From positions 1 to 64,000 of the forward strand of contig JAGWLG010000005.1 in NCBI GenBank assembly GCA_028864975.1: DNA of 64,000 bases. The letters run 5' to 3'. Both the position numbers and the translations under genes were made by a program. Shown here piece by piece: positions 38,355 through 50,830 of this stretch. The DNA comes from Thermoplasmata archaeon (GTDB taxonomy: Archaea > Thermoplasmatota > Thermoplasmata > Lutacidiplasmatales > UBA184). The notes beneath the pieces were generated by a model. It made no database searches. It was not told the origin of the DNA and saw nothing but the letters and a program-made list of their open reading frames with translations. Within the stretch, counting starts at the first letter, position 1. The number at the start of each line of letters is the position of its first letter.

Positions 38355-41300
38355 TCACGGAAGCACGGAGGCGGGAGGGGGCGGAGGTCTCCGTGCGTCC
38401 CGTTCCATCGCGGAGGCGATGGCACGGCCCTGTTCCTCGAGCCGTGATCGCTGCCTCCGTTGAAGCCGAACGAAGGCCACCGCCAGCGCCATCCCGACCA
38501 AGGCGGCCCCTCCACCCAGGGCGCCGACTTCCAAGGGGGATAGCGTGGTCGATCGCGTCTGCGCAGTGCCGTTGACAGTGATGAGGAGGCTCGACGCGAC
38601 ATTCCTTCCGCCGCCGTCGCTGACCTCTCCGTAGACCGTGTAGACCCCGGGCCTGGCGTAGCTGTGCCCCACCGACGCCGAGGGGCAGCCCTGGCACGAG
38701 GGGGAGGGGAAGGCCTGAGAGAAGCCCGTCGAGCCATCCCCAAAGGAGAGGTTCAGGTGACGCGTCCCTACGCCACCCGACACGTCGTAATAGACCATCG
38801 TGGAGAGAGGCGCGGGTCCCCACCGTGGTGTCGCAGAGAGGTCGAGCACGAGGGCGGGTATCGTGCAGTTGCAGCCAACCTGCACCGACTCGGAGAGCTG
38901 CGCCACTACCTCGTGACCCGCACTGTCGAAGACTTCGACGGTCGCAGTGTACGAGCCCGTAGAGGCGTACGAATGCGATGCGACCATGCCCGTCCCGTTG
39001 GTCCCGTCGCCAAAGGACCAGGAAGCCACGTAGGGGGAGGTCCCTCCCGACGCATTCGCCCAGAAGGTCACCGGGTGGCCAGCAGGCGCAGGGTTGGGCG
39101 AAGATGCCACGGTTGTCGACATCGGACACCCCGTGCAACCTCCACGGACCTGGACGGTGATCGACGCGTTCGACGTCCCTCCCGTCGAATCGGTGAGGAA
39201 GACCGCGGCCGCGAAGGCGCCGGCAAGCGAATAGAGGTGGGTCACGTTGAGCCCGTTCTGACTTCCTCCGTCCCCGAAGTACCACACGGCCGCGTACCCA
39301 CCGGAACCCCCGGTGGGGTTGCTCTGGAAGGCGACGGAAAGGGGGGCGACCCCTGAGCTCGGGTTCGCGGACGGATTCGCGGTGAGCTTGGCACCGCCAC
39401 CGGTCACCGTGATCGTGAGCCCTGCGATCGACCATGCGCCCCGACTGTCGGTGACGTTCAAGGTGACCAGGAACGACCGGACGGCGGTGAAGGTGTGTGT
39501 CGGGTCCTGAACCACGGAGGTGCTTCCGTCCCCAAAGGACCAAGCGTAGGCGACGTACGTGCCGCTCCCACCGGTGGCTCCTCCTGTGAAGGAAACCGCC
39601 AGGGGTGCGGCCCCCGACATCGGTGTGGCCGAAGGGTGGGCGAGCAGGGAGGCGTTACTGTTCGAGACCGTGACCCACACCCAGGAGGACGCAAAGTGCC
39701 CAAGCCGATCCTCCACCACGACCGTCGAATTGTACGTCCCGCTGGCATTGTAGGTGTGCCGAGGGTTCTCGGCGTACGAGTGGGGGGTCAGGTCCCCATA
39801 GCTCCAGTTCCAGGTGTATGGGGGTGCACCGCCGAAGGCGGTCGCATTGAACAGGACCTTGAGTGGAACCGCGCCGGAGCTGGGGGTGGCGGAGGGAGTG
39901 ACCGCGAGCATCGGTGGGGAGAGCGCGGTGATCGTCAGGGACGCGTTGGACGTGGCTCCGCGCGAATCGGTGACCTCCAGCGTCGCGGGGAAGGTCCCCG
40001 GGGTCGTGTAGGCGTGGGCGGGGTTCTGGACGGCGGAGGTCCCCCCGTCGCCGAAGTTCCAGCCCCACGAGTAGGGGGTGCTCCCTCCGCTCGCACCGCC
40101 CGAGAAGGTGACGGTGAGGGGCACCGCACCGGACAAGGGTGTCGCGGAGGCCGAGGCCTGGAGCGTCGAGTTGGAGTTGCGGACGTAGACCCAGACCTCG
40201 GTCGAGCCCAAGCGACCGAGTGCGTCGGTCACCTGAAGCCCTGCAAGATAGGTTCCACTCGCGTTGTACGTGTGCACCGGATCCTGTGCGAGGGACTCCG
40301 CGCTGCCATCCCCATACACCCAGCGCCAGGTGTACGGAGCGCTACCTCCCCGCACCGTGCCGGAGAAGCTCACCGTCAAAGGTACGGCTCCCGAGGGGGG
40401 TGAGGCGACGGCGGAGGCCACCATCCCTGCCGAAACGTTCGACCAAATCCCTGCCCGATAGGTCCACGTGTCGTTGAGCTGGCTCCACAGGTAGTTCGCC
40501 CCTCCAAAGAGCACCACGTACCCGTCGGACCAATCGAACGTGGTCGCCTCCGCCATGCGGTTCAGAGGGTACTCCCAGGCGCAGGGACTGCCGCGCTGAC
40601 ACCAGATCCGGTCATTGTTCTGGGGATTGGTCCAGTTCCCGCTGTGGAAGGTCCACCAGATCTCCGGGTCGCATCCACCCCTCAGGCAGTTGGTCGCGTT
40701 GTCGTCGGCGTTCGTGAAGAAGGGTACGGCATCCGCTGCGTCGTACGTGAATCCATCGTCGTACGGCTCGGGTGGCACGGGCCCGGAGGGATGCAGGAGG
40801 ACCCACGAGCCCCCACGCCAGGCCCACGTGTCCTGTAGCATGTTCACCCAGAACCCGCCGGGCTCCGGATTGACCACCGTGGTGCCGCCGAAGAGCACGA
40901 CTTCATGGTCCGCCGCGTCGTAGGTGAGCCCCGCTCCGGCGCGCGCGGAGGGCGAGGTCGGCGGGAAGAGCTCCGTCCAGGCGCCCCCGACGAACGTCCA
41001 GGTGTCACCGCAGACCGTCCCACAGCCTCCATTCCCCCCTCCGAACAGGAGCATGTAGCCGTCCGCGGAGTCGTTCGTGAAGGCAGCGGCCTCTCTCGAT
41101 GGAGGCGAGACGGGGGGGTGGAGCTGGCTCCAGACCCCGGCTCGGAAGGTCCAGGTCTGTCCTGCCGCAGCGCAGGTCCCTCCGGGGGCGCTCCCTGTCC
41201 CGGCGAAATAGACCACCTCGCTGTCGAAAGGGTCGAACGCCATCGAGGAGGCGACGCAGCTCTCTGGAAAGGACGAGGGGAAGAGCTCGGTCCAGACCCC

Positions 41301-41774
41301 CGCGTGGTACGTCCAGGTCTCGGTCCCGTTCTCCGGCCCTGACCCCGTGGCCCCCAAGAGCAGAACATAGCCGTCCGCGGCGTCGTAGGTCATCGCACTG
41401 TCATAGATCACGAAGCCTGGAGGAGAAGCGCCCCCTGTCGTGGACAGGGCTCGTCCAAGCTCCCCCTCCGGGGGAAGCGGTCCCAACACGCTTTGCGAAC
41501 ACCGAAGGTTGTTCGAGAGTTCAAGGGGGCGCAGGGGGAACATCATCGCGGGATGGGTCTGGTCGCAGGAGCGGCCACCTGCACCGGCCCCGATGGGACC
41601 GAACGAAGCGAGCCCGGTGGGGCCTGGCATCGGGGGGCGGAGAGGGGCTGCCCTCGCACCGACGGGAGGGATGGCCACGAGCACGGCGAGACCGACCGTC
41701 ATGACGAGCAAGAGTGCGCTCGTCGAGGGAAGGGGCGGACGGCCCCTACATGAGCGTGCCGAGCAGGTGTTCAT
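38355..41774 (-). CDS. Kelch beta-propeller + 7 PKD domains + C-terminal TM surface protein
   Basis: MTYDAADGY.LLFGG repeats; seven SG..PL.V.F...GG..PY.W.FGDG units; TM LGGGAALVGMALAVAFV. ATG 41774 preferred. Confidence 0.9.
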   Translation of the reverse strand: MNTCSARSCRGRPPLPSTSALLLVMTVGLAVLVAIPPVGARAAPLRPPMPGPTGLASFGPIGAGAGGRSCDQTHPAMMFPLRPLELSNNLRCSQSVLGPLPPEGELGRALSTTGGASPPGFVIYDSAMTYDAADGYVLLLGATGSGPENGTETWTYHAGVWTELFPSSFPESCVASSMAFDPFDSEVVYFAGTGSAPGGTCAAAGQTWTFRAGVWSQLHPPVSPPSREAAAFTNDSADGYMLLFGGGNGGCGTVCGDTWTFVGGAWTELFPPTSPSARAGAGLTYDAADHEVVLFGGTTVVNPEPGGFWVNMLQDTWAWRGGSWVLLHPSGPVPPEPYDDGFTYDAADAVPFFTNADDNATNCLRGGCDPEIWWTFHSGNWTNPQNNDRIWCQRGSPCAWEYPLNRMAEATTFDWSDGYVVLFGGANYLWSQLNDTWTYRAGIWSNVSAGMVASAVASPPSGAVPLTVSFSGTVRGGSAPYTWRWVYGDGSAESLAQDPVHTYNASGTYLAGLQVTDALGRLGSTEVWVYVRNSNSTLQASASATPLSGAVPLTVTFSGGASGGSTPYSWGWNFGDGGTSAVQNPAHAYTTPGTFPATLEVTDSRGATSNASLTITALSPPMLAVTPSATPSSGAVPLKVLFNATAFGGAPPYTWNWSYGDLTPHSYAENPRHTYNASGTYNSTVVVEDRLGHFASSWVWVTVSNSNASLLAHPSATPMSGAAPLAVSFTGGATGGSGTYVAYAWSFGDGSTSVVQDPTHTFTAVRSFLVTLNVTDSRGAWSIAGLTITVTGGGAKLTANPSANPSSGVAPLSVAFQSNPTGGSGGYAAVWYFGDGGSQNGLNVTHLYSLAGAFAAAVFLTDSTGGTSNASITVQVRGGCTGCPMSTTVASSPNPAPAGHPVTFWANASGGTSPYVASWSFGDGTNGTGMVASHSYASTGSYTATVEVFDSAGHEVVAQLSESVQVGCNCTIPALVLDLSATPRWGPAPLSTMVYYDVSGGVGTRHLNLSFGDGSTGFSQAFPSPSCQGCPSASVGHSYARPGVYTVYGEVSDGGGRNVASSLLITVNGTAQTRSTTLSPLEVGALGGGAALVGMALAVAFVRLQRRQRSRLEEQGRAIASAMERDARRPPPPPASVLP

Positions 41775-41800
41775 CGCCCATCCACTCGGTCGTCGAGGGA

Positions 41801-41835
41801 CAAAAAGGCCTCTCGGAGATACGCCCGAGATACGC
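41801..41835 (-). promoter_or_regulatory. Promoter: GCGTATC-N4-GCGTATC-N11-TTTTTG (tandem direct repeat + TATA-like box)
   Basis: Plus strand caaaaaggcctctcggaGATACGCccgaGATACGC; same spacing as 47130-47164. Confidence 0.7.
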
Positions 41836-41908
41836 CGTTCCGGGGTCGCAACACGGCGCGGGGAGCCTCCCACCCGCGTCGAAGGAGGGAGCCGAACGGT
41901 CCTCGTCC

Positions 41909-43327
41909 TCATTCCTGCGGGGCCGCCTCCTTGGCCGCTCCTCGACCAGGATCGAGGGTCGCACCCTTCCGTCGAAGCTCCTTGGCCAGGGCCTCTCCGC
42001 GGCCGGTCAATCGGTAGACCTTCATGCGACGTGGTCGGCCGCGCACGTGGCGAACGTCGACCAGAAGGATCCCTCCGGCCTCCAGACGTCGTAGGACATT
42101 GGTCAGCGCGTTCTGACGGACCCCGAGGGTCTCGGCCATGCCCTGCTGGGTGAACGCAACCGGTGCGACATCGTCCGCGTGAAGCGCCCCTTGCAAGGCC
42201 AGGTGGACGACGACCCTCTCGGAGACGCGAAGGGCGTCCCGGGACGGAGGTGTCGCCTTCGGACGCGAAGGCCGGGCCGGCCTCGCGGTCACGCCCTGGG
42301 TCGCTCCGGAAACCTCTGGGGGCTTCGGAGGGGATATCGGAACCGTTCCAGGGACGGCCACGGCAACCACGGCCTCGACCGAAGAGCTCGCAGTGGGGGG
42401 GCTCGTGATGGCCGTGGGGGTCGTGGCCACGCTTCCGTCAGTCGTGGCCTGGGTATCAGCGACCTCTCTGCGAGCCTTCGTTTCCCGGCTCTCCTGACCC
42501 GTTCGTATCCCCCCAAGTCGCAGCAGGGCGTAGAGCGCGAGCCCTCCCGAGGCCGCTCCCAGGCCTAGCGCCCAGAACAGAGGCGTGATCTCCAGCGAAG
42601 AGGGAGAAGCCGCCGCGGCGGTGACGTTGACCCACGTCGTGGCTGACGCCGGGGTGCCTTTGGAATCGGTGACCGTGAACGTGACCAGATACGTTCCCGC
42701 ATCTCGGTACGAATGATCGAGCGCGATCCCCGTTCCGCTCGATGCGTCCCCGAAGGTCCAGGAGTAGGAAGCGTACGTGCCGGTGCCTCCCGTCACGCGG
42801 CCCTCGAAGGAGACCGTCAGCGGCGCTTCCCCTCCCAGAGGCGAGGCCACGATCGAGACCTCTAACGCCGAAGGCACGACATGGATGGTGATGTTGGCGC
42901 TCGAGGTCCTGAGGCCCTCGTGCACCGTAACGGTCGTGTCGAAGTACCCCGCGTGGCCGTAGGTGTGGTATCTGGGGTCCCAGGGCGCATGGCTCGAGAC
43001 GTTGACATCGGGAGTTCCGTCGCCGAAGCTCCAGTTGTAGCTTGTCGGTACCCCCGAGATCGCGGTCGCGTTCAACAAGACGACCAGGGGAACCCCGCCG
43101 TAGCTAGGGGTCGCGGAAAGCGCGACGAGGAAGAGGGGCTCCGGGGAAGTCGAGGCCTCCTCCGGCGCCGTCCCCGCCCCAGGGGTCCCTGAGAAGAAGA
43201 GGAGGAGGACCCCGAGGAGCAGGGTGATGACCAGGCGCCGAACGTGGCGTACGTAGCACCTCAAGGCGAATGTCGGCACCCTGTAGGAGCGATATGGGCA
43301 TTTGCTCCCGGGGCCGGTACCCCACAC
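41909..43327 (-). CDS. Membrane-tethered transcription factor: signal/TM + 2 PKD + TM + C-terminal winged HTH
   Basis: RRLVITLLLGVLLLFF; two PKD units; TM PLFWALGLGAASGGLALYALL; FTQQGMAETLGVRQNALTNVLRRLEAGG...RMKVYRLTGRG. The start may be GTG 43279. Confidence 0.85.
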   Translation of the reverse strand: MWGTGPGSKCPYRSYRVPTFALRCYVRHVRRLVITLLLGVLLLFFSGTPGAGTAPEEASTSPEPLFLVALSATPSYGGVPLVVLLNATAISGVPTSYNWSFGDGTPDVNVSSHAPWDPRYHTYGHAGYFDTTVTVHEGLRTSSANITIHVVPSALEVSIVASPLGGEAPLTVSFEGRVTGGTGTYASYSWTFGDASSGTGIALDHSYRDAGTYLVTFTVTDSKGTPASATTWVNVTAAAASPSSLEITPLFWALGLGAASGGLALYALLRLGGIRTGQESRETKARREVADTQATTDGSVATTPTAITSPPTASSSVEAVVAVAVPGTVPISPPKPPEVSGATQGVTARPARPSRPKATPPSRDALRVSERVVVHLALQGALHADDVAPVAFTQQGMAETLGVRQNALTNVLRRLEAGGILLVDVRHVRGRPRRMKVYRLTGRGEALAKELRRKGATLDPGRGAAKEAAPQE

Positions 43328-43333
43328 CGGCGA

Positions 43334-43765
43334 TCAGGCCTTCTCTCTGAGGACGGCCGCCGTCTTGCTGAGCTCATCAGGGCTCGTAGGTTGGACCTTC
43401 ATCTCCCACCATTCCTGGAGTGCGAGGTCGTCCCCCTCCCGCCGGGGGACAACGTGGATGTGGAGGTGCCTCACGCTCTGCTCCGCCGATCTGCCACTCG
43501 AGACGAACAGATTGTTGCCCGTGACCTCGAGGACCTTGCGAAGGCGAAGAGCGGTCCACCGCGCGAGCTCGGCCACCTCCGCCCAATCCTCGGGAGTCAC
43601 CTCTGTGAGGTCCGCCGCATGGGCCTTCGGGATGACCAGCGAGTGTCCCCAGCTTATCGGGTTGACATCGAGGAAGGCGAGGGCGCGGGGCGACTCGCGG
43701 ATCCGGTGGGAAGGGATCTCTCCCTTGGCGATGGCGCAGAAGACGCAGGGGGGTCCGCTACCCAT
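43334..43765 (-). CDS. HIT family nucleotide hydrolase
   Basis: CVFCAI, AFLDVNP, GHSLVIPK, HLHIHVVPR. Confidence 0.96.
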   Translation of the reverse strand: MGSGPPCVFCAIAKGEIPSHRIRESPRALAFLDVNPISWGHSLVIPKAHAADLTEVTPEDWAEVAELARWTALRLRKVLEVTGNNLFVSSGRSAEQSVRHLHIHVVPRREGDDLALQEWWEMKVQPTSPDELSKTAAVLREKA

Positions 43766-43828: not shown

Positions 43829-46800
43829 TCACCGCGCGCCAAACGGAGGCATCTCGAGACTCCTCTGACGGAGGGCGATCGCCCCGCTCTGAGGGTCGAA
43901 CTCGATCCTCTCGGAAAGGATCGTGGGGGGGTGTCGGACCTGTGTCGCCCCCCCTGCTGGGGTCGATGGCGACGGTTTCGAAGTGTCGCCCGGAGCCGGA
44001 GACGCGCCGGACGCAACAAGGCCCCCGGACGCTCTCCTTCGAGGGGGGCGAAGGAGGAGGAAACCCGCCAGAGCCGTGATCCCCACCGTACCAAGGACCA
44101 GTCCCGCCACGATGGCCGGGTCCCCAAGGGCCGAGCCCGACCTGGCCCCACCTGGCGCACTGACCTGGACGTACAGCACGCTGCTGATACCCCGTCGCCC
44201 CGATGCATCGGTCACCAGGACGAAGACCGCATACTCGCCCGTCATCGCGAACGTGTGCGTGGTGGAGAGCGAGGTCGAGCTGAACGTGGTCCCATCTCCG
44301 AAGTTCCAGAGAACCTGATACGGCACAGCTCCGCCCTGTACGACCGCCGTGAACTGCGTCGGACTGCCCTCTCGCGGGAAGGACGAGCTCCAGAAGCTGA
44401 CGTTCAGAGGAAGGTCCCCTCCCCCGCAGGATGTCGCGTTGACGATGGCGATCGCGGGAAGGGTCGCCGAGTCCCCCACTTGGTCCTCCACGGTGAGACG
44501 GGGATGATAGGTTCCCGGGACCGAGTAGTTGTACGAGATGGTCGCGGGGCCCTGGACCGTGCCCGCTCCGGTGAAGTTCCAGAGGAAGGTGTACGGGGGG
44601 ACTCCCCCCGTCGCGGAAGCCTGAAAGACGACGTTGACCGGCGCGCAGGCGCTGACGCTGGTCGCCGTGGCCGATCCCACGAGGACGGTGCCGTTCCCTC
44701 CCCCGCCGCTCTCGTTGACCTGGATGCGCAGCGACGCGATGGCGCTGTTCCCCCCGCTGTCGTTGACGAGAACGGTGGCCTCGTAGGTACCGGGGGTCGG
44801 GTAGGTATAGGCCGGGCAGGCCTCGGAAGACGCTCCCCCGTTCCCGAAGGTCCACGCATAGGTGTAGGGCGCGAGCCCTCCCGCGACCTGGGCACAGAAC
44901 TGGACCGCGAGCGGCGCCGTACCGCTCGTAGGCTCGCCCGAGACCTGGATCAGGACCGACGAGGAGCCGTTAGGGTCGACCGTGACCATCAACGCGGCGC
45001 TTGTCGCAGAGTTCCCGCGGGCATCCGTGACGAGAAGCTGGACAGTGAAAGTTCCGGTCGCGTAGATGGTGCAACTGAAGCTCGCGTTCCTGGGAGCGGT
45101 GCAGGGGACCCCCGTCCAAGCGAAGGCATAGGGGGGAGCGCCGCCGGAGGCCGCTCCGGTGAACTGGACGAGCAAAGGCGCGACCCCGGTCGTCGGATCC
45201 GCGGAAGCCGTGGCCGAGAGCGCTGGGGGTGAGGTGACGACGACGGTCACGCTGGTCGATGCGGAAGCGCCCGTCGAGTCGGTGGCCACGACGGTGGCGG
45301 TGAAGGTTCCTGGCGTCGAATAGATGTGACTCACCGTGGCCCCCGTGGCCGTCGAACCGTCGCCGAGGTCCCAGCTCCAAGAGTAGGGGGGCGATCCCCC
45401 CGCCGTGGCGGCGTCCAGGGTGCAGGGAGTTCCAAAGCCGACGGGGTCCGGCGTGGCGCTCGCCGCTACATGGAGCGTGGTCGAACTGGTCACGTTCAGC
45501 GTCCAGGTGTCACCAAAGAGGGTGGTCGACGTGCCGCCCCCGAAGTAGAGGACGTACCCCTCGGCGGGGTCGTAGGCCATGGCGGCGCCGGCACGGCCGT
45601 CGGGCATCGCCGTGAGCAGACTCGTCAAGTTCGTCCAGTTCGCTCCCGACAGGCTCCACAGCTCTACACAGCTGGTCGGGCCGCTGCAGGAATGCCGCGG
45701 CCACGTGTCCGTGAAAGGGAGGAGGACCCCTTGAGCGGCCGGATCGTCGACCATCTGCTCCCACCCCCCGAAGGGCGGCTCTGGGCTCCACGTATCGACC
45801 TTCCATGCCCCGTTCTGGTACAGACAGGTCCCGTAGGTGTCGTTCCCCCCTACGGAGACCAAGTAGGCGTCGGTCGAGTCGAAGGTGAGAGGGTCAAGGA
45901 GGGTGCAAGAGTCGACCGCAGCATCCTGCCACCAGGTCCCCGCGTGGTAGAAATCGAGCGGGCTCGCTGACGGGGTAGGGTTCGGGTAGCGCCCGATCAA
46001 GGCTACCGCAGCCGCGACCGGGTCGTAGGTAAGGTCCGGGGCGTACGACCATGACCCGAGGGACGAGGGAAGGGTCCCTTCCAGCTGCCACTGGTCATTG
46101 GAGAAGACCCAGACATCGTTCAGACCACGGACCGAGCTGTTGGACCCGCCCACGAGGAGGAGGTACCCGTCCGCAGCGTCGTACGTCATCATCGCGCCGT
46201 AGCGCGGTGAGGGGGCGGTCGAGAGTCCCGCCGAGAGGTTGGTCCAGACCCCGTGCTCGAAGGCCCACGTGTCGCCGAGGGGGGCGCTCCTCGCGCCCGC
46301 TCCCCCGAAGAGGAGCACGGCCTGCATGGCCGGGTCGTAGGCGGCCGCCGCCCCCGTCCGAGCCGAAGGGGAGGCAGGGGTGGTGAGGAGGGTCCAGGCA
46401 GCGGATACCGTCGGAGGCGTCACCGTGATGGTGAGATTGACGAACGCATGCCAAGGCTGGGCCTGGGTATCGATCGCCTCGAAGGTCACGAGATAGGTCC
46501 CTGGGGCTGTGAACGTGTGGGCACCGAAGGTCCAGGTGCCGGTCCGGGCGTAGCAGTAACTGTTGCTCGGCCCCGCCCTCGCCCCATCGCCGTAGTCGAA
46601 GCTGCAGTCATAGTAGTAGTAACCGGCGGGGTCCCCCCTCACGGAGGTCTCAAACCCGACGGTGAGCGGCGCGGGACCCGCCGTCCTCGAGGCGTTCGCC
46701 CAGGCTTGCAGAACGAAGGAGGGCGACACTCCCGCCGGAGCGCCGTCGGTTTGAGGACCCGATGGGCCCTCTACCACGCTGCCGCGCGCGAGCGTTTCTG

Positions 46801-47095
46801 CCCAAGGGGGTGCGAGCTGCGGTCCGAGCCGTTGACCCGGGAGCTGCCAGTGGTCGACCGGCTCCCACAGGTGGGCCATGGCGTCCGATCGGACCTCCGT
46901 GGGGGTCGGCGAGTGGGCAGCCAACGACAGCGCCCCCGACACCGGGTCCGATAGCGGGCGTCCTGCATGGACAGCAAGCCCCGCTGGGAGGATGCTCAGA
47001 AGGAGCATCATGACCAAGAGGAGCACCATCGCCGTATCGGTCGAGCTCCTGGAGGGTCTGGGGCAGCAGCCCATTGACGGGCGCGATGCATTCAT
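43829..47095 (-). CDS. PKD + Kelch beta-propeller + 5 PKD + C-terminal TM surface protein
   Basis: Signal MVLLLVMMLLLSIL; AAYDPA..AVLLFGG repeats; GG..PY.W..GDG units; TM IVAGLVLGTVGITALAGFLLL. Confidence 0.9.
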   Translation of the reverse strand: MNASRPSMGCCPRPSRSSTDTAMVLLLVMMLLLSILPAGLAVHAGRPLSDPVSGALSLAAHSPTPTEVRSDAMAHLWEPVDHWQLPGQRLGPQLAPPWAETLARGSVVEGPSGPQTDGAPAGVSPSFVLQAWANASRTAGPAPLTVGFETSVRGDPAGYYYYDCSFDYGDGARAGPSNSYCYARTGTWTFGAHTFTAPGTYLVTFEAIDTQAQPWHAFVNLTITVTPPTVSAAWTLLTTPASPSARTGAAAAYDPAMQAVLLFGGAGARSAPLGDTWAFEHGVWTNLSAGLSTAPSPRYGAMMTYDAADGYLLLVGGSNSSVRGLNDVWVFSNDQWQLEGTLPSSLGSWSYAPDLTYDPVAAAVALIGRYPNPTPSASPLDFYHAGTWWQDAAVDSCTLLDPLTFDSTDAYLVSVGGNDTYGTCLYQNGAWKVDTWSPEPPFGGWEQMVDDPAAQGVLLPFTDTWPRHSCSGPTSCVELWSLSGANWTNLTSLLTAMPDGRAGAAMAYDPAEGYVLYFGGGTSTTLFGDTWTLNVTSSTTLHVAASATPDPVGFGTPCTLDAATAGGSPPYSWSWDLGDGSTATGATVSHIYSTPGTFTATVVATDSTGASASTSVTVVVTSPPALSATASADPTTGVAPLLVQFTGAASGGAPPYAFAWTGVPCTAPRNASFSCTIYATGTFTVQLLVTDARGNSATSAALMVTVDPNGSSSVLIQVSGEPTSGTAPLAVQFCAQVAGGLAPYTYAWTFGNGGASSEACPAYTYPTPGTYEATVLVNDSGGNSAIASLRIQVNESGGGGNGTVLVGSATATSVSACAPVNVVFQASATGGVPPYTFLWNFTGAGTVQGPATISYNYSVPGTYHPRLTVEDQVGDSATLPAIAIVNATSCGGGDLPLNVSFWSSSFPREGSPTQFTAVVQGGAVPYQVLWNFGDGTTFSSTSLSTTHTFAMTGEYAVFVLVTDASGRRGISSVLYVQVSAPGGARSGSALGDPAIVAGLVLGTVGITALAGFLLLRPPRRRASGGLVASGASPAPGDTSKPSPSTPAGGATQVRHPPTILSERIEFDPQSGAIALRQRSLEMPPFGAR

Positions 47096-47129
47096 GGTGG
47101 CACCGCGATGAATCTGTGTTCTCTCCGTT

Positions 47130-47164
47130 CAAATATCGAACTCAAAGATACGCTGAGGATACGC
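47130..47164 (-). promoter_or_regulatory. Promoter: GCGTATC-N4-GCGTATC-N11-TATTTG
   Basis: Plus strand caaatatcgaactcaaaGATACGCtgagGATACGC; a third, inverted copy GCGTATC at 47184-47190. Confidence 0.7.
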
Positions 47165-47282
47165 CACGAACAGGACGCCCGTAGCGTATCCGGGTCGTAG
47201 CTCGCTACGGATCCTTGGCGACCTCCCCACTCATCATCGGCGCGGGAGGAGATGTTTTAGGCGCCACCTATTCGCGCCCCCC

Positions 47283-47522
47283 ATGACCCTCACTCGGCGT
47301 TCGGCCATGGCTCCGAAAGGGGCCTACTGCTTCGGATGCAACCAGGCCATCGACGGCGGGGCACCTTCGGTCCGCTTCGAGAGCGACCTTGTCCCCGCCC
47401 CGGACCGCCCCGAGCTGGCAAACCTCTACTTCCACCCTGGCCATCTCCTTCGCTATGCTCGTCGCCGGAACTGGACCGAGCTTGCCTCTTTCCTTGAAGC
47501 TAATACTCCGTCGAGCTGGTGA
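47283..47522 (+). CDS. Small putative zinc-binding protein (CxxC...HxxH)
   Basis: YCFGCNQAI...LYFHPGHL; the start may be ATG 47307. Confidence 0.65.
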   Translation: MTLTRRSAMAPKGAYCFGCNQAIDGGAPSVRFESDLVPAPDRPELANLYFHPGHLLRYARRRNWTELASFLEANTPSSW

Positions 47523-47764
47523 TCCTGTTCCGGGCTCTCGGGCACCGAGGGTCCGTGGTCTGCGATGACGAGGAGGGCCCCGGGACCCTGAGTCGTTGTG
47601 TCGTCCTCCACGGGGACGGGAGAGGTGGAGCACCCGAACCCCACTCGAAGAGATGCTGCTCCTCGGTCGGGCCCTTCTTCGGGGAGCATCTCCTCCCGTG
47701 AACACCTAATGCCCCTCAAGATTCTCCTACGAACGTGGGGCATTCCCCGTCAAGTTCCCGAGCG

Positions 47765-50700
47765 ATGAAGACCGGGACCCCGAGCTCGGACATCCCAGGA
47801 CTCTCGAGGTCTGCCCAGCTCGTGGGCCGGCGAGAGGTCATGGCCGAGCTCCGACGGATCCTTCTGGCCGCGAAGGAGGGGACCGGCTCCACGGTCGCGC
47901 TCACAGGCCCCGGTGGGATCGGGAAGACGAGCCTCCTCCGGTGGCTGGACGAGGAAGCGCGGGGCGAGGGCTTTGCAGTGCGGATGGGTTTCTGCTTGCA
48001 GGGGATCGACGCGCCTTTCTTTGCCTTCGAGCAGGTCTGGGGAGCATCGTCAGCCATACGTGACCCACCGGAGAGCCCGGCCGGGTCTAGTGCCGCGGCC
48101 GCGGCGGACGACGACGGGGCCCGGCTCGCGGCCGGGCCTGCGCAGCACGCCTCCATGGAACTCCGGCCGCAAGAGACGGGAGCCCTCCCGGGACGTCCTC
48201 TCCCTTTCCTCGGGCAGGCCGATGACGAGATCCCCCCGTCGGTCACGCTCCTACGATACCGGGAAGAGCTCGCGCAGGCCTCGAGCCAACGCCCGTTCCT
48301 CCTCCTGCTTGACGACCTGCAGTGGGCGGATCCCCAGTCCCTTCAGGCGCTGCAGTTCCTCGCTCGAAACCTGAGCGAGCTCCGCGCGTTCGTGGTCGTC
48401 GCCTTACGCGACGACCCGCACTCCCTCCAGGGGACCGACCCGGCCGAGGGACCGACGGTCGGGGAGACCATCGACCAACTGGTACGGGAGCGGACCCTTC
48501 GCCGCTTCTCCCTCTCCCCCTTCACTCGCGGAGAGGTCCGCCGTCTGGTCGCCAACGCGCTCGGGGGGGGCGTAGTCTCCGGAGAAAGCGAAGCGATGCT
48601 CCAGATCCTGACCGAACGAAGCGGAGGGATCCCCTACTACGTCGAGGAGCTCCTCCAGCAGCTGCGTTCGGAGGGCTACGTCGAGCGCGTCCGTGGAGGT
48701 TGGAAGCTCCGGCCCCCGGAGTCCTGGAAGGGTGCGCGTCGCTCGGGGGAAGGGCCCCGAGCGCCCATCCCCCTCTCGCTCCAGCGCCTGCTCAGGGCCA
48801 AGGTCTCGCCGCTCTCCCCGTCGGAGCGACGCGTTCTCGAGGTCGGGGCGGTGGTGGGGCTCCGCTTCGACCTTGAAGCCGTTGCCGCCGTCACGGGGCT
48901 CGGGGGTGCCGAGACCGAGTCGGTCTCCCGAAAGCTCTCGGAGGGGAGCCCGCTCCTGGTCCCCCCGGGAGGGGGTGGGGCTTCCTGGTCGTTCGTCCAC
49001 CCTCTGCTGTGGGAATACCTCCTCCACGAGCTGGCCCCGGGGTCCTTGCGGCGCATCTCTCAGGACCTCGCGACGTGGTGGGAGGTCCATCGCCCTCAGG
49101 AGATCGGGCGGATCGCGGGGTTCTACCATGCCGCTGGCGATGCGCGACGGGGACCGCCATCGATCCGTCGGGCGCTCGAGCATGCCCGACGGTCCCTCGC
49201 CTTGGACCAGGTCGAGACCTACCTGGGGTGGCTGCGGGAGCTGCTCCTGGAGCAGGGAACTTCGACGGCCCTCGTCGTCGAGGAGCAGTTGTTCATCGTC
49301 GACGCCCTGCGCTCGCTGGGAGGCTTCGAACATGGTCGTCGGGTCCTCGAGGGCCTCACCGACCTTCCGATCCCTCCCCCCCTGCGAGGCGAGGTCCTGG
49401 TCCGTCTGGCGGATCTGGTCAAGAACTACGATCCAGAGCGGAGCCAGCGACTCCTGACCGACCTCGAGCAGGGGACTTCGGTCGCCGGGCTGGTGCCCTA
49501 CGGGACCCTGCTGGGACGGATCCGCGTCGCCCAGGCCTATCTCCGAAACGAACAGATGGACTACTCCAAGAGCCTGGAGCTCGGCAGCGAGGCGCTCTCC
49601 CTCCTCGGGCCGAAGGGCGACCCGTACGAACGATCTCGTGTGCTCTCGTACCGCGCGTCCGCCCTGGCCAATCTCGGCCGGTTCGAGGAGGCGGCCGCCG
49701 CCTCAGGGGGGGCCCAGGAGATCGCCGAGAACGCGGGGTTGATGGGGATCCTCGAGCAGGCCAAGGTGGGCGCCGCCTATGCTCAGCTCGCCCGGGGCCA
49801 CGTTCGAGAGGCCCACGAGGACTTCCTTGCCGCCACCTCGCTCGCCCGACGGTCCGGCCACATCCCCCTCGTAGTGCACGGGCTGCTCTGCGACTGTCTT
49901 TCCCTCCTCGAGTTGGGTCGGTCCGACGAAGCGCGAAGCTTCGCGGAAGAGGCGAAGCTCCTCGCACGGCAGTTCGGCATGCAACGGTACGTGGCCGAGG
50001 CGGAGGGCACTTTGGCCGCTATCGCCCTTCGTCGTGGTGACACCATCAACGCGGTCCGGCACGGGAAGATCGCGCTGGGCTTGTCCAGTGGCATGGGGGA
50101 GGGCCAGCGGGTCAGCTTCCGTCTGACCCTGATCCGCGCTTACGCCGCCAGGGGGGAGGGGGCGGCGGCGCTGCGGGAGCTCTCCGAGGTCCTTCCCCCC
50201 GGGACGGACCCGAAAAGCGCCAGCTATCCGGACATCGCGCTCACGGGCGCTGAGGCCCTTGAGGCCAACGGACGGTCGGAGGAGGCCCGGGCGTTCCTGG
50301 AGGCCTCCCTCTCAAGGTCGCGCGAGATGCGGCTGCCCCTCATCGAAGCGGACTCGCTCCTCGCGCTCGCGGTCTGGGAGGAGCGCCACGGGGGGGCGGC
50401 GGCCTCGAGTCGACGCCGAAAGGAGGCTGAAGCTATGCTGGCACCGCTCTCGCTCTCCCTCCATGGGCGCCCACCGCCCCTCCTCTCCACCCTGCATGCC
50501 TCCCGCCGCCCTCGCCCCTCCCGGAGCGAGCGAAGGACCCCCGGCCTCTCCACGGGAGACCTCGTCCTCCTGCATCTCCAGCGCAACCTCCGCCACAGCG
50601 CCCTCCTGAGCGACGGAGGGGCCGCACCGGTGGCCCTCACGCAGGAAGGGATCGGAGAGGAACTCGGGCTGTCTCAGGGACGTTTGGCCGCCCCGCTCCA

Positions 50701-50830
50701 ACGGCTCGTGCAACGAGGGCTCGTGAAGTGCGCGGTGTGCCACGTGCAAGGGTTCGAAAGGCGCCGAAAGGCCTACGCGCTCACTCGCAAAGGACTTCTT
50801 GTGGCGAAGGGGCTCCAACCCCGCCGTTGA
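47765..50830 (+). CDS. STAND-type NTPase (AAA_16-like) + TPR repeats + C-terminal winged HTH
   Basis: Walker A GPGGIGKT, Walker B LLLLDDLQWAD, SGGIPYYVEEL, helical repeats, LTQEGIGEELGLSQ...RRRKAYALTRKG. Confidence 0.9.
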   Translation: MKTGTPSSDIPGLSRSAQLVGRREVMAELRRILLAAKEGTGSTVALTGPGGIGKTSLLRWLDEEARGEGFAVRMGFCLQGIDAPFFAFEQVWGASSAIRDPPESPAGSSAAAAADDDGARLAAGPAQHASMELRPQETGALPGRPLPFLGQADDEIPPSVTLLRYREELAQASSQRPFLLLLDDLQWADPQSLQALQFLARNLSELRAFVVVALRDDPHSLQGTDPAEGPTVGETIDQLVRERTLRRFSLSPFTRGEVRRLVANALGGGVVSGESEAMLQILTERSGGIPYYVEELLQQLRSEGYVERVRGGWKLRPPESWKGARRSGEGPRAPIPLSLQRLLRAKVSPLSPSERRVLEVGAVVGLRFDLEAVAAVTGLGGAETESVSRKLSEGSPLLVPPGGGGASWSFVHPLLWEYLLHELAPGSLRRISQDLATWWEVHRPQEIGRIAGFYHAAGDARRGPPSIRRALEHARRSLALDQVETYLGWLRELLLEQGTSTALVVEEQLFIVDALRSLGGFEHGRRVLEGLTDLPIPPPLRGEVLVRLADLVKNYDPERSQRLLTDLEQGTSVAGLVPYGTLLGRIRVAQAYLRNEQMDYSKSLELGSEALSLLGPKGDPYERSRVLSYRASALANLGRFEEAAAASGGAQEIAENAGLMGILEQAKVGAAYAQLARGHVREAHEDFLAATSLARRSGHIPLVVHGLLCDCLSLLELGRSDEARSFAEEAKLLARQFGMQRYVAEAEGTLAAIALRRGDTINAVRHGKIALGLSSGMGEGQRVSFRLTLIRAYAARGEGAAALRELSEVLPPGTDPKSASYPDIALTGAEALEANGRSEEARAFLEASLSRSREMRLPLIEADSLLALAVWEERHGGAAASSRRRKEAEAMLAPLSLSLHGRPPPLLSTLHASRRPRPSRSERRTPGLSTGDLVLLHLQRNLRHSALLSDGGAAPVALTQEGIGEELGLSQGRLAAPLQRLVQRGLVKCAVCHVQGFERRRKAYALTRKGLLVAKGLQPRR

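Follow-up and report, generated by a model that had tools for sequence, protein, structure and literature searches.

A predicted membrane-tethered regulator with a C-terminal winged helix, and its candidate operator, at a Kelch-PKD surface-protein locus of a Thermoplasmata archaeon

The locus considered here raises the question of whether a protein that carries Ig-like PKD domains outside the cell can also serve inside it as a transcription factor, and which promoters it would then read. The locus lies in a 64,000-nucleotide stretch of a Thermoplasmata archaeon contig (the window), in which a gene at 41909-43327 on the reverse strand (hereafter the regulator) was originally predicted from the letters alone to be a membrane-tethered transcription factor, situated next to a Kelch-PKD gene with a tandem repeat in its promoter. 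All the evidence presented below is computational. It makes it likely that the gene encodes a type-I single-pass transmembrane (TM) regulator that binds the repeat and controls adjacent surface-protein genes and, usually, its own operon.

Architecture, topology and fold of the regulator

The regulator is a single open frame, which the open reading frame (ORF) listing of the window begins at GTG 43327. Since the public gene call for the identical protein (P0005, 100% identity) has 451 aa, the start codon is most likely TTG 43264. That start yields a standard signal peptide, in which 14 hydrophobic residues form the core between a basic n-region and a c-region of small residues. The parts of the gene, with their basis in brackets, where wHTH stands for winged helix-turn-helix and pLDDT for the predicted local distance difference test, are:

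41909..43327, reverse strand: the regulator gene, with signal peptide, PKD, PKD, TM, linker and wHTH (open frame, database gene call, 50-member alignment)
43166..43264, reverse strand: N-terminal signal peptide or N-in anchor (hydropathy; helix 5-24 in the full-length model)
42620..43126, reverse strand: two predicted extracellular PKD (Ig-like) domains with 5 N-X-S/T sequons (Pfam PKD, sequons, beta-sandwich model)
42515..42583, reverse strand: single TM helix, Gly-rich, with GxxxG and basic residues after it (hydropathy, 50-member alignment, full-length model)
42242..42514, reverse strand: disordered, predicted cytoplasmic linker of ~90 aa, rich in Pro, Ala, Ser and Thr (pLDDT 40-50)
41954..42241, reverse strand: C-terminal PadR/MarR-like wHTH, the most conserved part of the protein (alignment, profile, model, Foldseek)

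The N-terminal hydrophobic segment spans residues 28-50 by hydropathy and has a counterpart in 43 of the 50 family members. The PKD domains, at ~42875-43126 and ~42620-42862, were matched by Pfam PKD with an E value of 4.5e-20, and PF00801 and PF18911 gave 71.9 and 70.6 bits, above the curated score, over two stretches each. The TM segment (residues 247-271 by hydropathy) is kept in 49/50 members, and across the family the linker is 44-109 aa long with 21% Pro. A full-length AlphaFold2 model, computed from a 50-sequence alignment, gave the order N-terminal helix, two beta-sandwiches (the PKD domains, both with pLDDT >90), TM helix, ~90 disordered residues and a confident C-terminal domain. Every element of the originally claimed layout, that is, a signal-like N-terminus, two PKD domains, one TM segment, a linker and a C-terminal wHTH, was therefore recovered by Pfam, hydropathy and AlphaFold2 near the position first assigned to it.

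The orientation of the protein was assessed from charge and sequon distributions in the 50 members. The 15 residues after the TM segment contained a mean of 3.74 Lys/Arg, compared with 0.34 before it, and the count was greater after the TM segment in all but one member (49/50). N-X-S/T sequons numbered 2.9 per 100 aa in the PKD part and 0.09 per 100 aa in the C-terminal part, a 31-fold difference in density, and all five sequons of the regulator itself are located between its two hydrophobic segments. By the positive-inside rule, together with the sequon distribution, these data indicate extracellular PKD domains and a cytoplasmic wHTH, with or without cleavage of the signal peptide. The predicted topology thus has the wHTH inside the cell, as a DNA-binding role had presupposed.

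An AlphaFold2 model of the isolated C-terminal domain (pLDDT 88) consists of a helix, a helix-turn-helix, a beta-hairpin wing and a further helix. Its best Foldseek matches were all DNA-binding regulators: the PadR protein Rv3488 at the top (E 4e-4, TM-score 0.58-0.61), then MepR and ZitR, which are MarR-type, and YodB. When the family profile was compared with sequences in the PDB, Rv3488 again came first (E 1.4e-5) and SlyA reached E 2e-4. The domain is only ~95 aa long, and its alignments to MarR chains are restricted to the wHTH core, without the flanking dimerisation helices; a PadR-type winged-helix fold with its C-terminal helix was found by both Foldseek and profile. The strongest conservation in the 50-member alignment falls on an almost invariant recognition helix and a basic wing. 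Judged by model and profile, the C-terminal domain is a wHTH of the PadR/MarR fold, and the doubt over whether the C-terminus is a wHTH at all was settled in its favour, with PadR/MarR regulators top in both comparisons. The wHTH profile matched the regulator at 41960-42235 in the genome scan with E 1.8e-43.

When 5.8 billion proteins were searched, this architecture recurred in more than 100 protein clusters of 350-470 aa, all from Thermoplasmata metagenome-assembled genomes (MAGs) where sources were named. The databases label them 'PKD domain-containing protein' (NCBI) or, in some JGI entries, 'PKD repeat protein/DNA-binding MarR family'. Among species-representative genomes, 33 loci were found, of which 32 come from records titled Thermoplasmata and 1 from a record titled Methanobacteriota. 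A fusion that recurs in this way is not an assembly chimera, which had been the other threat to the original prediction. The wHTH profile alone found 2108 representative proteins at E <=1e-3 and 798 at <=1e-10, and nearly all of the best 150 of the 2108 carry the domain at or close to the C-terminus.

The N-terminal partners of this wHTH are of several types: a PKD pair with TM, a bare TM anchor, a giant surface protein with TM, and a soluble STAND-TPR protein. One conserved output domain on varied inputs is the usual signature of one-component regulators, and we read the sequence pattern in that sense. The anchor-only relatives total ~180-245 aa, with an N-terminal TM and almost no ectodomain; some short wHTH proteins have no detected TM. 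The existence of anchor-only relatives suggests that the constant feature of the family is the membrane tether and not the PKD sensor, a correction to the emphasis of the original prediction, in which the ectodomain was the sensor of a surface ligand.

Several relatives of the regulator illustrate this range. Minimal members of 176-188 aa, with few outside residues, an N-terminal TM, a linker and the wHTH, were seen at L028 7893-8423 and L030 9106-9672, where each follows a Kelch/PKD surface-protein gene with a GAGTATC-type tandem repeat in its promoter. A giant version is present in the same genome as the regulator, at C39:17427-22619 (locus L041 5464-10623), where an open frame of 1731 aa (~1719 aa when counted from its first start codon) encodes beta-propeller-like repeats, ~9 FN3-like repeats, a TM helix, a long linker and the same wHTH at the end; P0226, from another genome, is comparable. 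Another contig of that genome, C101 (locus L040 4799-7514), encodes a second PKD-PKD-TM-wHTH paralogue, the wHTH of which is 58% identical; it follows immediately on a gene for a 404-aa PKD-TM protein, and a STAND-TPR gene lies upstream. In the window itself, 47735-50830 on the forward strand encodes a STAND NTPase (AAA_16) with a MalT-like TPR region and a terminal wHTH paralogue (41% identity). Contig C97 (38346-41525) encodes a similar STAND-TPR-wHTH protein, and other genomes have such proteins too (P0178).

The tandem repeat and the genes behind it

The strict repeat GCGTATC-N4-GCGTATC occurs exactly twice in the 3.6-Mb genome, before each of the two Kelch-PKD genes that flank the regulator. 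The element noticed earlier before the downstream Kelch-PKD gene is thus real, at 41818-35, and has a twin at 47147-64. The features concerned, with PWM denoting a position weight matrix, are:

41814..41837, reverse strand: operator-like tandem repeat before Kelch-PKD gene 1 (strict form 41818-35; 7-bp core and 4-bp spacer; PWM, promoter alignment)
47143..47166, reverse strand: second operator-like tandem repeat, before Kelch-PKD gene 2 (strict form 47147-64; PWM, promoter alignment)
38355..41774, reverse strand: Kelch-PKD gene 1, with signal peptide, Kelch propeller, 7 PKD domains and TM; likely start ATG 41774 (domain scan, promoter layout)
43829..47095, reverse strand: Kelch-PKD gene 2, with signal peptide, PKD, Kelch, PKD repeats and TM (domain scan)
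43334..43765, reverse strand: HIT-family hydrolase gene between gene 2 and the regulator (Pfam HIT, E 3e-23)

Because these two sites are the sole copies genome-wide, the strict repeat is not a chance occurrence. TATA-like boxes lie downstream of the repeats, at ~41799-41807 (T-rich) and ~47128-47137. A PWM scan of 7.2 M positions of the genome gave 35.1 bits for the gene 1 site and 32.5 bits for the gene 2 site, and the next position scored 19.4. The PWM was built from sites found via the window's own motif, which makes scores at the training loci circular; independent support for the repeat comes from untrained loci, from exact counts across the order set against a control, and from the background of the genome itself.

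The same element is also present in intergenic regions adjoining regulator homologues of distant MAGs. The distance from the end of the repeat to the start codon was 40-53 nt in 15 non-redundant related loci, 13 of them at 40-44 nt, and the genes that follow encode signal-peptide proteins with a C-terminal TM, most of them with PKD repeats. The regulator gene comes next after the target in 11/13 loci, at -4 to +88 nt, a spacing that indicates a two-gene operon; the target lies downstream of the regulator in one related locus, like 38355-41774 in the window. When the promoters were aligned, conservation was confined to the repeat, the next four bases and, ~11 nt further on, a TATA-like box. The TATA-like box lies ~28 nt before the start codon, so that the target mRNAs are probably leaderless, which would put the repeat at roughly -61 to -44.

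Six loci outside the PWM training set scored 17-24 bits at the equivalent position. In 151 genomes of the order, the exact pattern was matched 18 times and its reversed control 0 times, and 15 of the 18 matches lie 1.2-4.4 kb from a wHTH match on the same contig; both numbers include one match in an unpublished genome (G044), without which they are 17 and 14. A further match precedes an 838-aa surface-protein gene without an adjoining regulator, another (G148) is without a plausible downstream gene, and a third (G095:C9) is ambiguous. On these counts and alignments, the repeat is a rare conserved promoter element tied to the regulator gene.

In the window, the long ORF of gene 1 (38355-41912) overlaps the regulator stop codon (ATGA). 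Judging from the promoter layout and the signal peptide, translation more likely begins at ATG 41774, 43 nt past the repeat, and gene 1 would then encode 1139 aa behind a 134-nt intergenic promoter region. Gene 2, the HIT gene and the regulator share a strand, with gaps of ~60-70 nt, and gene 2 probably heads a transcription unit containing the other two.

Two weaker sites were also seen in this genome. The 19.4-bit site, at C97:149687-149738 (locus L042 6688-6740), has the same repeat, TATA-like box and 43-nt layout, and precedes a signal-peptide protein gene that runs off the contig end; a 17-bit site lies 5 nt upstream on the other strand. It probably marks a third member of the regulon. 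Within the intergenic region of the gene 2 repeat, 47184-47201 on the forward strand holds a weaker copy in the opposite direction, with its first core intact and its second degenerate, which points to a 79-aa ORF with CxxC and HxxH motifs (47283-47522) and to the STAND gene. This copy may be a second, divergent site.

The STAND and HIT genes were tried as parts of the system and rejected: neither had a tblastn match in 39 related loci, and they are local neighbours only. The HIT gene is probably outside the system.

Reading of the repeat and proposed mechanism

The GCGTATC repeat is very probably the binding site of the regulator. We assign it to the wHTH because the regulator gene constantly adjoins the repeat, because the STAND and HIT neighbours are absent from other loci, because conservation in the protein centres on the recognition helix and wing, and because helix variants go with half-site variants. 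Recognition helices of the RQNxLTN type occur mostly with a GCGTATC half-site, those of the GQNQ[VI]SN type with GTGTATC or GTGTAGC, and those of the RQG[TN]LTK type, from short anchor-only proteins, with GAGTATC. This tracking of helix and half-site is suggestive. A conserved operator-like repeat beside the gene in many genomes supports the view of the protein as a transcription factor that the original prediction took.

The key steps of the mechanism we propose are as follows. The signal peptide would send the two PKD domains outside, and the one TM helix with its GxxxG motif would anchor the protein. In the cytoplasm, a flexible linker of ~90 aa would bear the PadR/MarR-like winged helix, and two such tethered winged helices would lie side by side, on one face of the DNA, on a direct repeat with an 11-bp period. 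This phasing has the same geometry as the direct repeats of OmpR/PhoB-type regulators. The repeat would abut the TFB-recognition element (BRE) and TATA box, ~42 nt before the start codons of the large PKD/Kelch surface-protein genes. The upstream copy would drive 43829-47095, the HIT gene and the regulator, and the downstream copy 38355-41774. Since the regulator lies in the probable unit headed by one of the repeat-bearing genes, it probably controls its own expression.

The sign of the control is less clear-cut. Activation seems somewhat more plausible than repression, given a site immediately before BRE/TATA. ArnR, with boxes at -43 to -84 (PMC6396743), and EarA (PMC5512572) are examples of archaeal activators working from there.

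The switch itself would be a clustering of ectodomains or TM helices, which is a guess. GxxxG is present in the TM helix of 40/50 members and hints at helix-helix dimerisation, yet the motif is common in Gly-rich segments. A bolder form of the mechanism, which we hold to be speculative and rather improbable, is a self-reinforcing surface-contact circuit, in which the PKD ectodomain (or the TM alone) associates with the self-induced PKD/Kelch protein or with that of a neighbouring cell, and the resulting clustering pairs winged helices on the repeat. If it were true, a Notch-like type-I receptor with an Ig-like ectodomain would couple archaeal surface state or cell-cell contact to a promoter, and the gene might be held at the membrane during secretion of its product.

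Several observations weigh against regulation of the adjacent genes through the repeat by this wHTH. The domain falls under every Pfam HTH gathering score, the best being HTH_Crp_2 with 18.5 bits against 27. Its sub-threshold matches were HTH_Crp_2, HxlR, MarR and PadR: the PadR family model PF03551 was not reached (13.1 bits, cut-off 27), nor were the MarR models PF01047 and PF12802 (13 bits against 24.6) or the NCBIfam model of the Rv3488 family (19.9 against 140). PadR and MarR proteins of solved structure bind inverted repeats as symmetric dimers, and a direct repeat here would imply a mode of binding unlike that of the closest structural relatives. The correlation of helix and half-site has exceptions (L004, L012 and L014), and its rows are related by descent. 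A position upstream of BRE/TATA suggests activation and does not prove it. Relatives without an ectodomain keep the same wHTH and the same kind of operator, so that PKD sensing is not essential. Finally, a paralogous subfamily (C101 of this genome and loci L016-L018) has the same two-gene layout, and no GCGTATC-type repeat was found in it: the repeat scan of the C101 locus gave nothing promoter-like, and an ad hoc search of the subfamily for GTCGT-type repeats gave one convincing case only, at L017, where GGTCGTA-type repeats stand before a perfect TATA box.

The alternative that survives best keeps the whole architecture and differs in the last step, with proteolysis in or near the Gly-rich TM segment, or in the linker, freeing the wHTH as a soluble factor. 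Such a system would resemble the logic of Notch or of anti-sigma factors (RsgI), not that of ToxR. A long disordered linker and a Gly-rich TM helix are compatible with protease substrates, and soluble proteins with the same wHTH do exist, namely the STAND-TPR fusions and some short forms without a detected TM. However, no conserved protease gene adjoins the locus, and with 44-109 aa of linker the domain could contact DNA while still anchored in the membrane, which is the accepted view of ToxR, CadC and ArnR (PMC10269533, PMC6396743). The GxxxG motif is equally readable as a dimerisation motif, and we consider release unlikely.

It is also conceivable that the regulator is a surface or adhesion protein whose winged helix makes protein contacts, and that the repeat is bound by another factor, for example the STAND-TPR-wHTH protein of 47735-50830. 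Winged helices can act as protein-interaction modules, and the STAND protein carries a paralogous wHTH (41% identity) encoded divergently from the second repeat and from Kelch-PKD gene 2. Its recognition helix differs from that of the regulator, however, and none of the 39 related loci with the repeat or the regulator has a STAND homologue. The gene that constantly accompanies the repeat is instead that of the regulator, at 15/18 exact matches in the 151 genomes, and the conserved residues of the regulator family map to the recognition helix and the basic wing. We regard another reader as improbable. The two target genes are paralogous in domain content, but an artefact, whether misassembly of PKD-TM with wHTH or repeats left over from a recent duplication of the Kelch-PKD gene, is refuted by the same fusion in >100 clusters and 33 independent MAG loci and by a repeat kept before non-orthologous targets of 410-1379 aa, with regulators only ~40% identical and flanking bases unconserved, and we give it practically no weight.

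Taken as a membrane-tethered regulator with its operator and targets, the locus offers a testable set for an uncultured lineage of soil and peat Thermoplasmata. To our knowledge, the binding site is known for few archaeal transcription activators, and ArnR and ArnR1 are the main membrane-bound examples studied. The set comprises ~2,100 representative sequences and an 18-bp predicted operator with lineage-specific variants. The predicted regulon is small, at 1-3 promoters per genome, all of them for large PKD/Kelch surface proteins. The four carriers of the wHTH (PKD receptors, bare anchors, giant surface proteins and STAND NTPases) would be a natural experiment in wiring one DNA-binding module to different inputs.

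Comparison with known regulators

A transmembrane transcription regulator has been defined by a predicted TM region and a DNA-binding domain, and a census by Demey et al. in 2023 covered 404 archaeal species, found one or more such proteins in 367 of them and counted 1,384 in total (PMC10269533). The regulator fits this definition, with a TM region and a predicted cytoplasmic DNA-binding domain. The main text of the census names neither PKD, PadR, MarR nor Thermoplasmata (PMC10269533). A census made with domain models would probably miss most members of the family because the wHTH falls below Pfam thresholds, and archaeal signal-transduction censuses probably undercount such proteins for this reason. 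Our literature searches led to this census and to papers on ArnR, and to no published description of the family, of its operator or of a link to PKD/Kelch surface proteins. Transmembrane regulators are thus already known in archaea, and it is the family, the inverted topology and the operator that appear undescribed.

Among soluble proteins, Rv3488 (PDB 5zhc, 5zi8), MepR, ZitR and SlyA have the same order of secondary structure as the wHTH, down to the C-terminal helix that follows the wing. These proteins are small, soluble and dimeric, whereas the wHTH here is predicted to be membrane-tethered, with a direct repeat as its predicted site. STAND-TPR-HTH regulators like MalT and AfsR are soluble and take their input through an NTPase, which the regulator does not have. 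The STAND-TPR paralogue shares the wHTH of the regulator, showing that domain as an output module.

The membrane-bound archaeal proteins ArnR and ArnR1 of Sulfolobus acidocaldarius are one-component activators with a regulon of cell-surface structures; in ArnR the HTH is N-terminal and is followed by HAMP-like and sensor domains, all cytoplasmic, and by two C-terminal TM helices, and ArnR binds inverted repeats (PMC6396743). Its likeness to the regulator is functional only, in that both are membrane-bound archaeal regulators with a box upstream of BRE/TATA and surface targets. ArnR has no extracellular Ig-like domain, the order and content of domains differ, and no sequence relationship between the two was detected.

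The likeness in plan is to bacterial ToxR, CadC and TcpP, single-pass membrane proteins in which a cytoplasmic winged-helix DNA-binding domain is linked directly to an extracytoplasmic one. As for OmpR/PhoB-type domains, the site predicted here is a direct repeat with a spacing of about one helical turn near the core promoter. Like the co-component systems ToxR/ToxS and VtrA/VtrC (PMC9214523), the regulator is often encoded with a membrane or periplasmic partner. It is not, by its sequence, a member of the ToxR/CadC family: no Trans_reg_C match was found in it, and its wHTH is PadR/MarR-like, not OmpR/PhoB-like. ToxR and CadC are type II proteins, with an OmpR/PhoB-type wHTH at the cytoplasmic N-terminus and a periplasmic sensor at the C-terminus, whereas the regulator is predicted to be type I, with a PKD pair as its ectodomain and an archaeal host whose promoters use TBP and TFB. 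The original prediction of an inverted analogue of ToxR and CadC is borne out by the topology and domain data, which put the candidate sensor at the N-terminus outside the cell and the wHTH at the C-terminus inside it.

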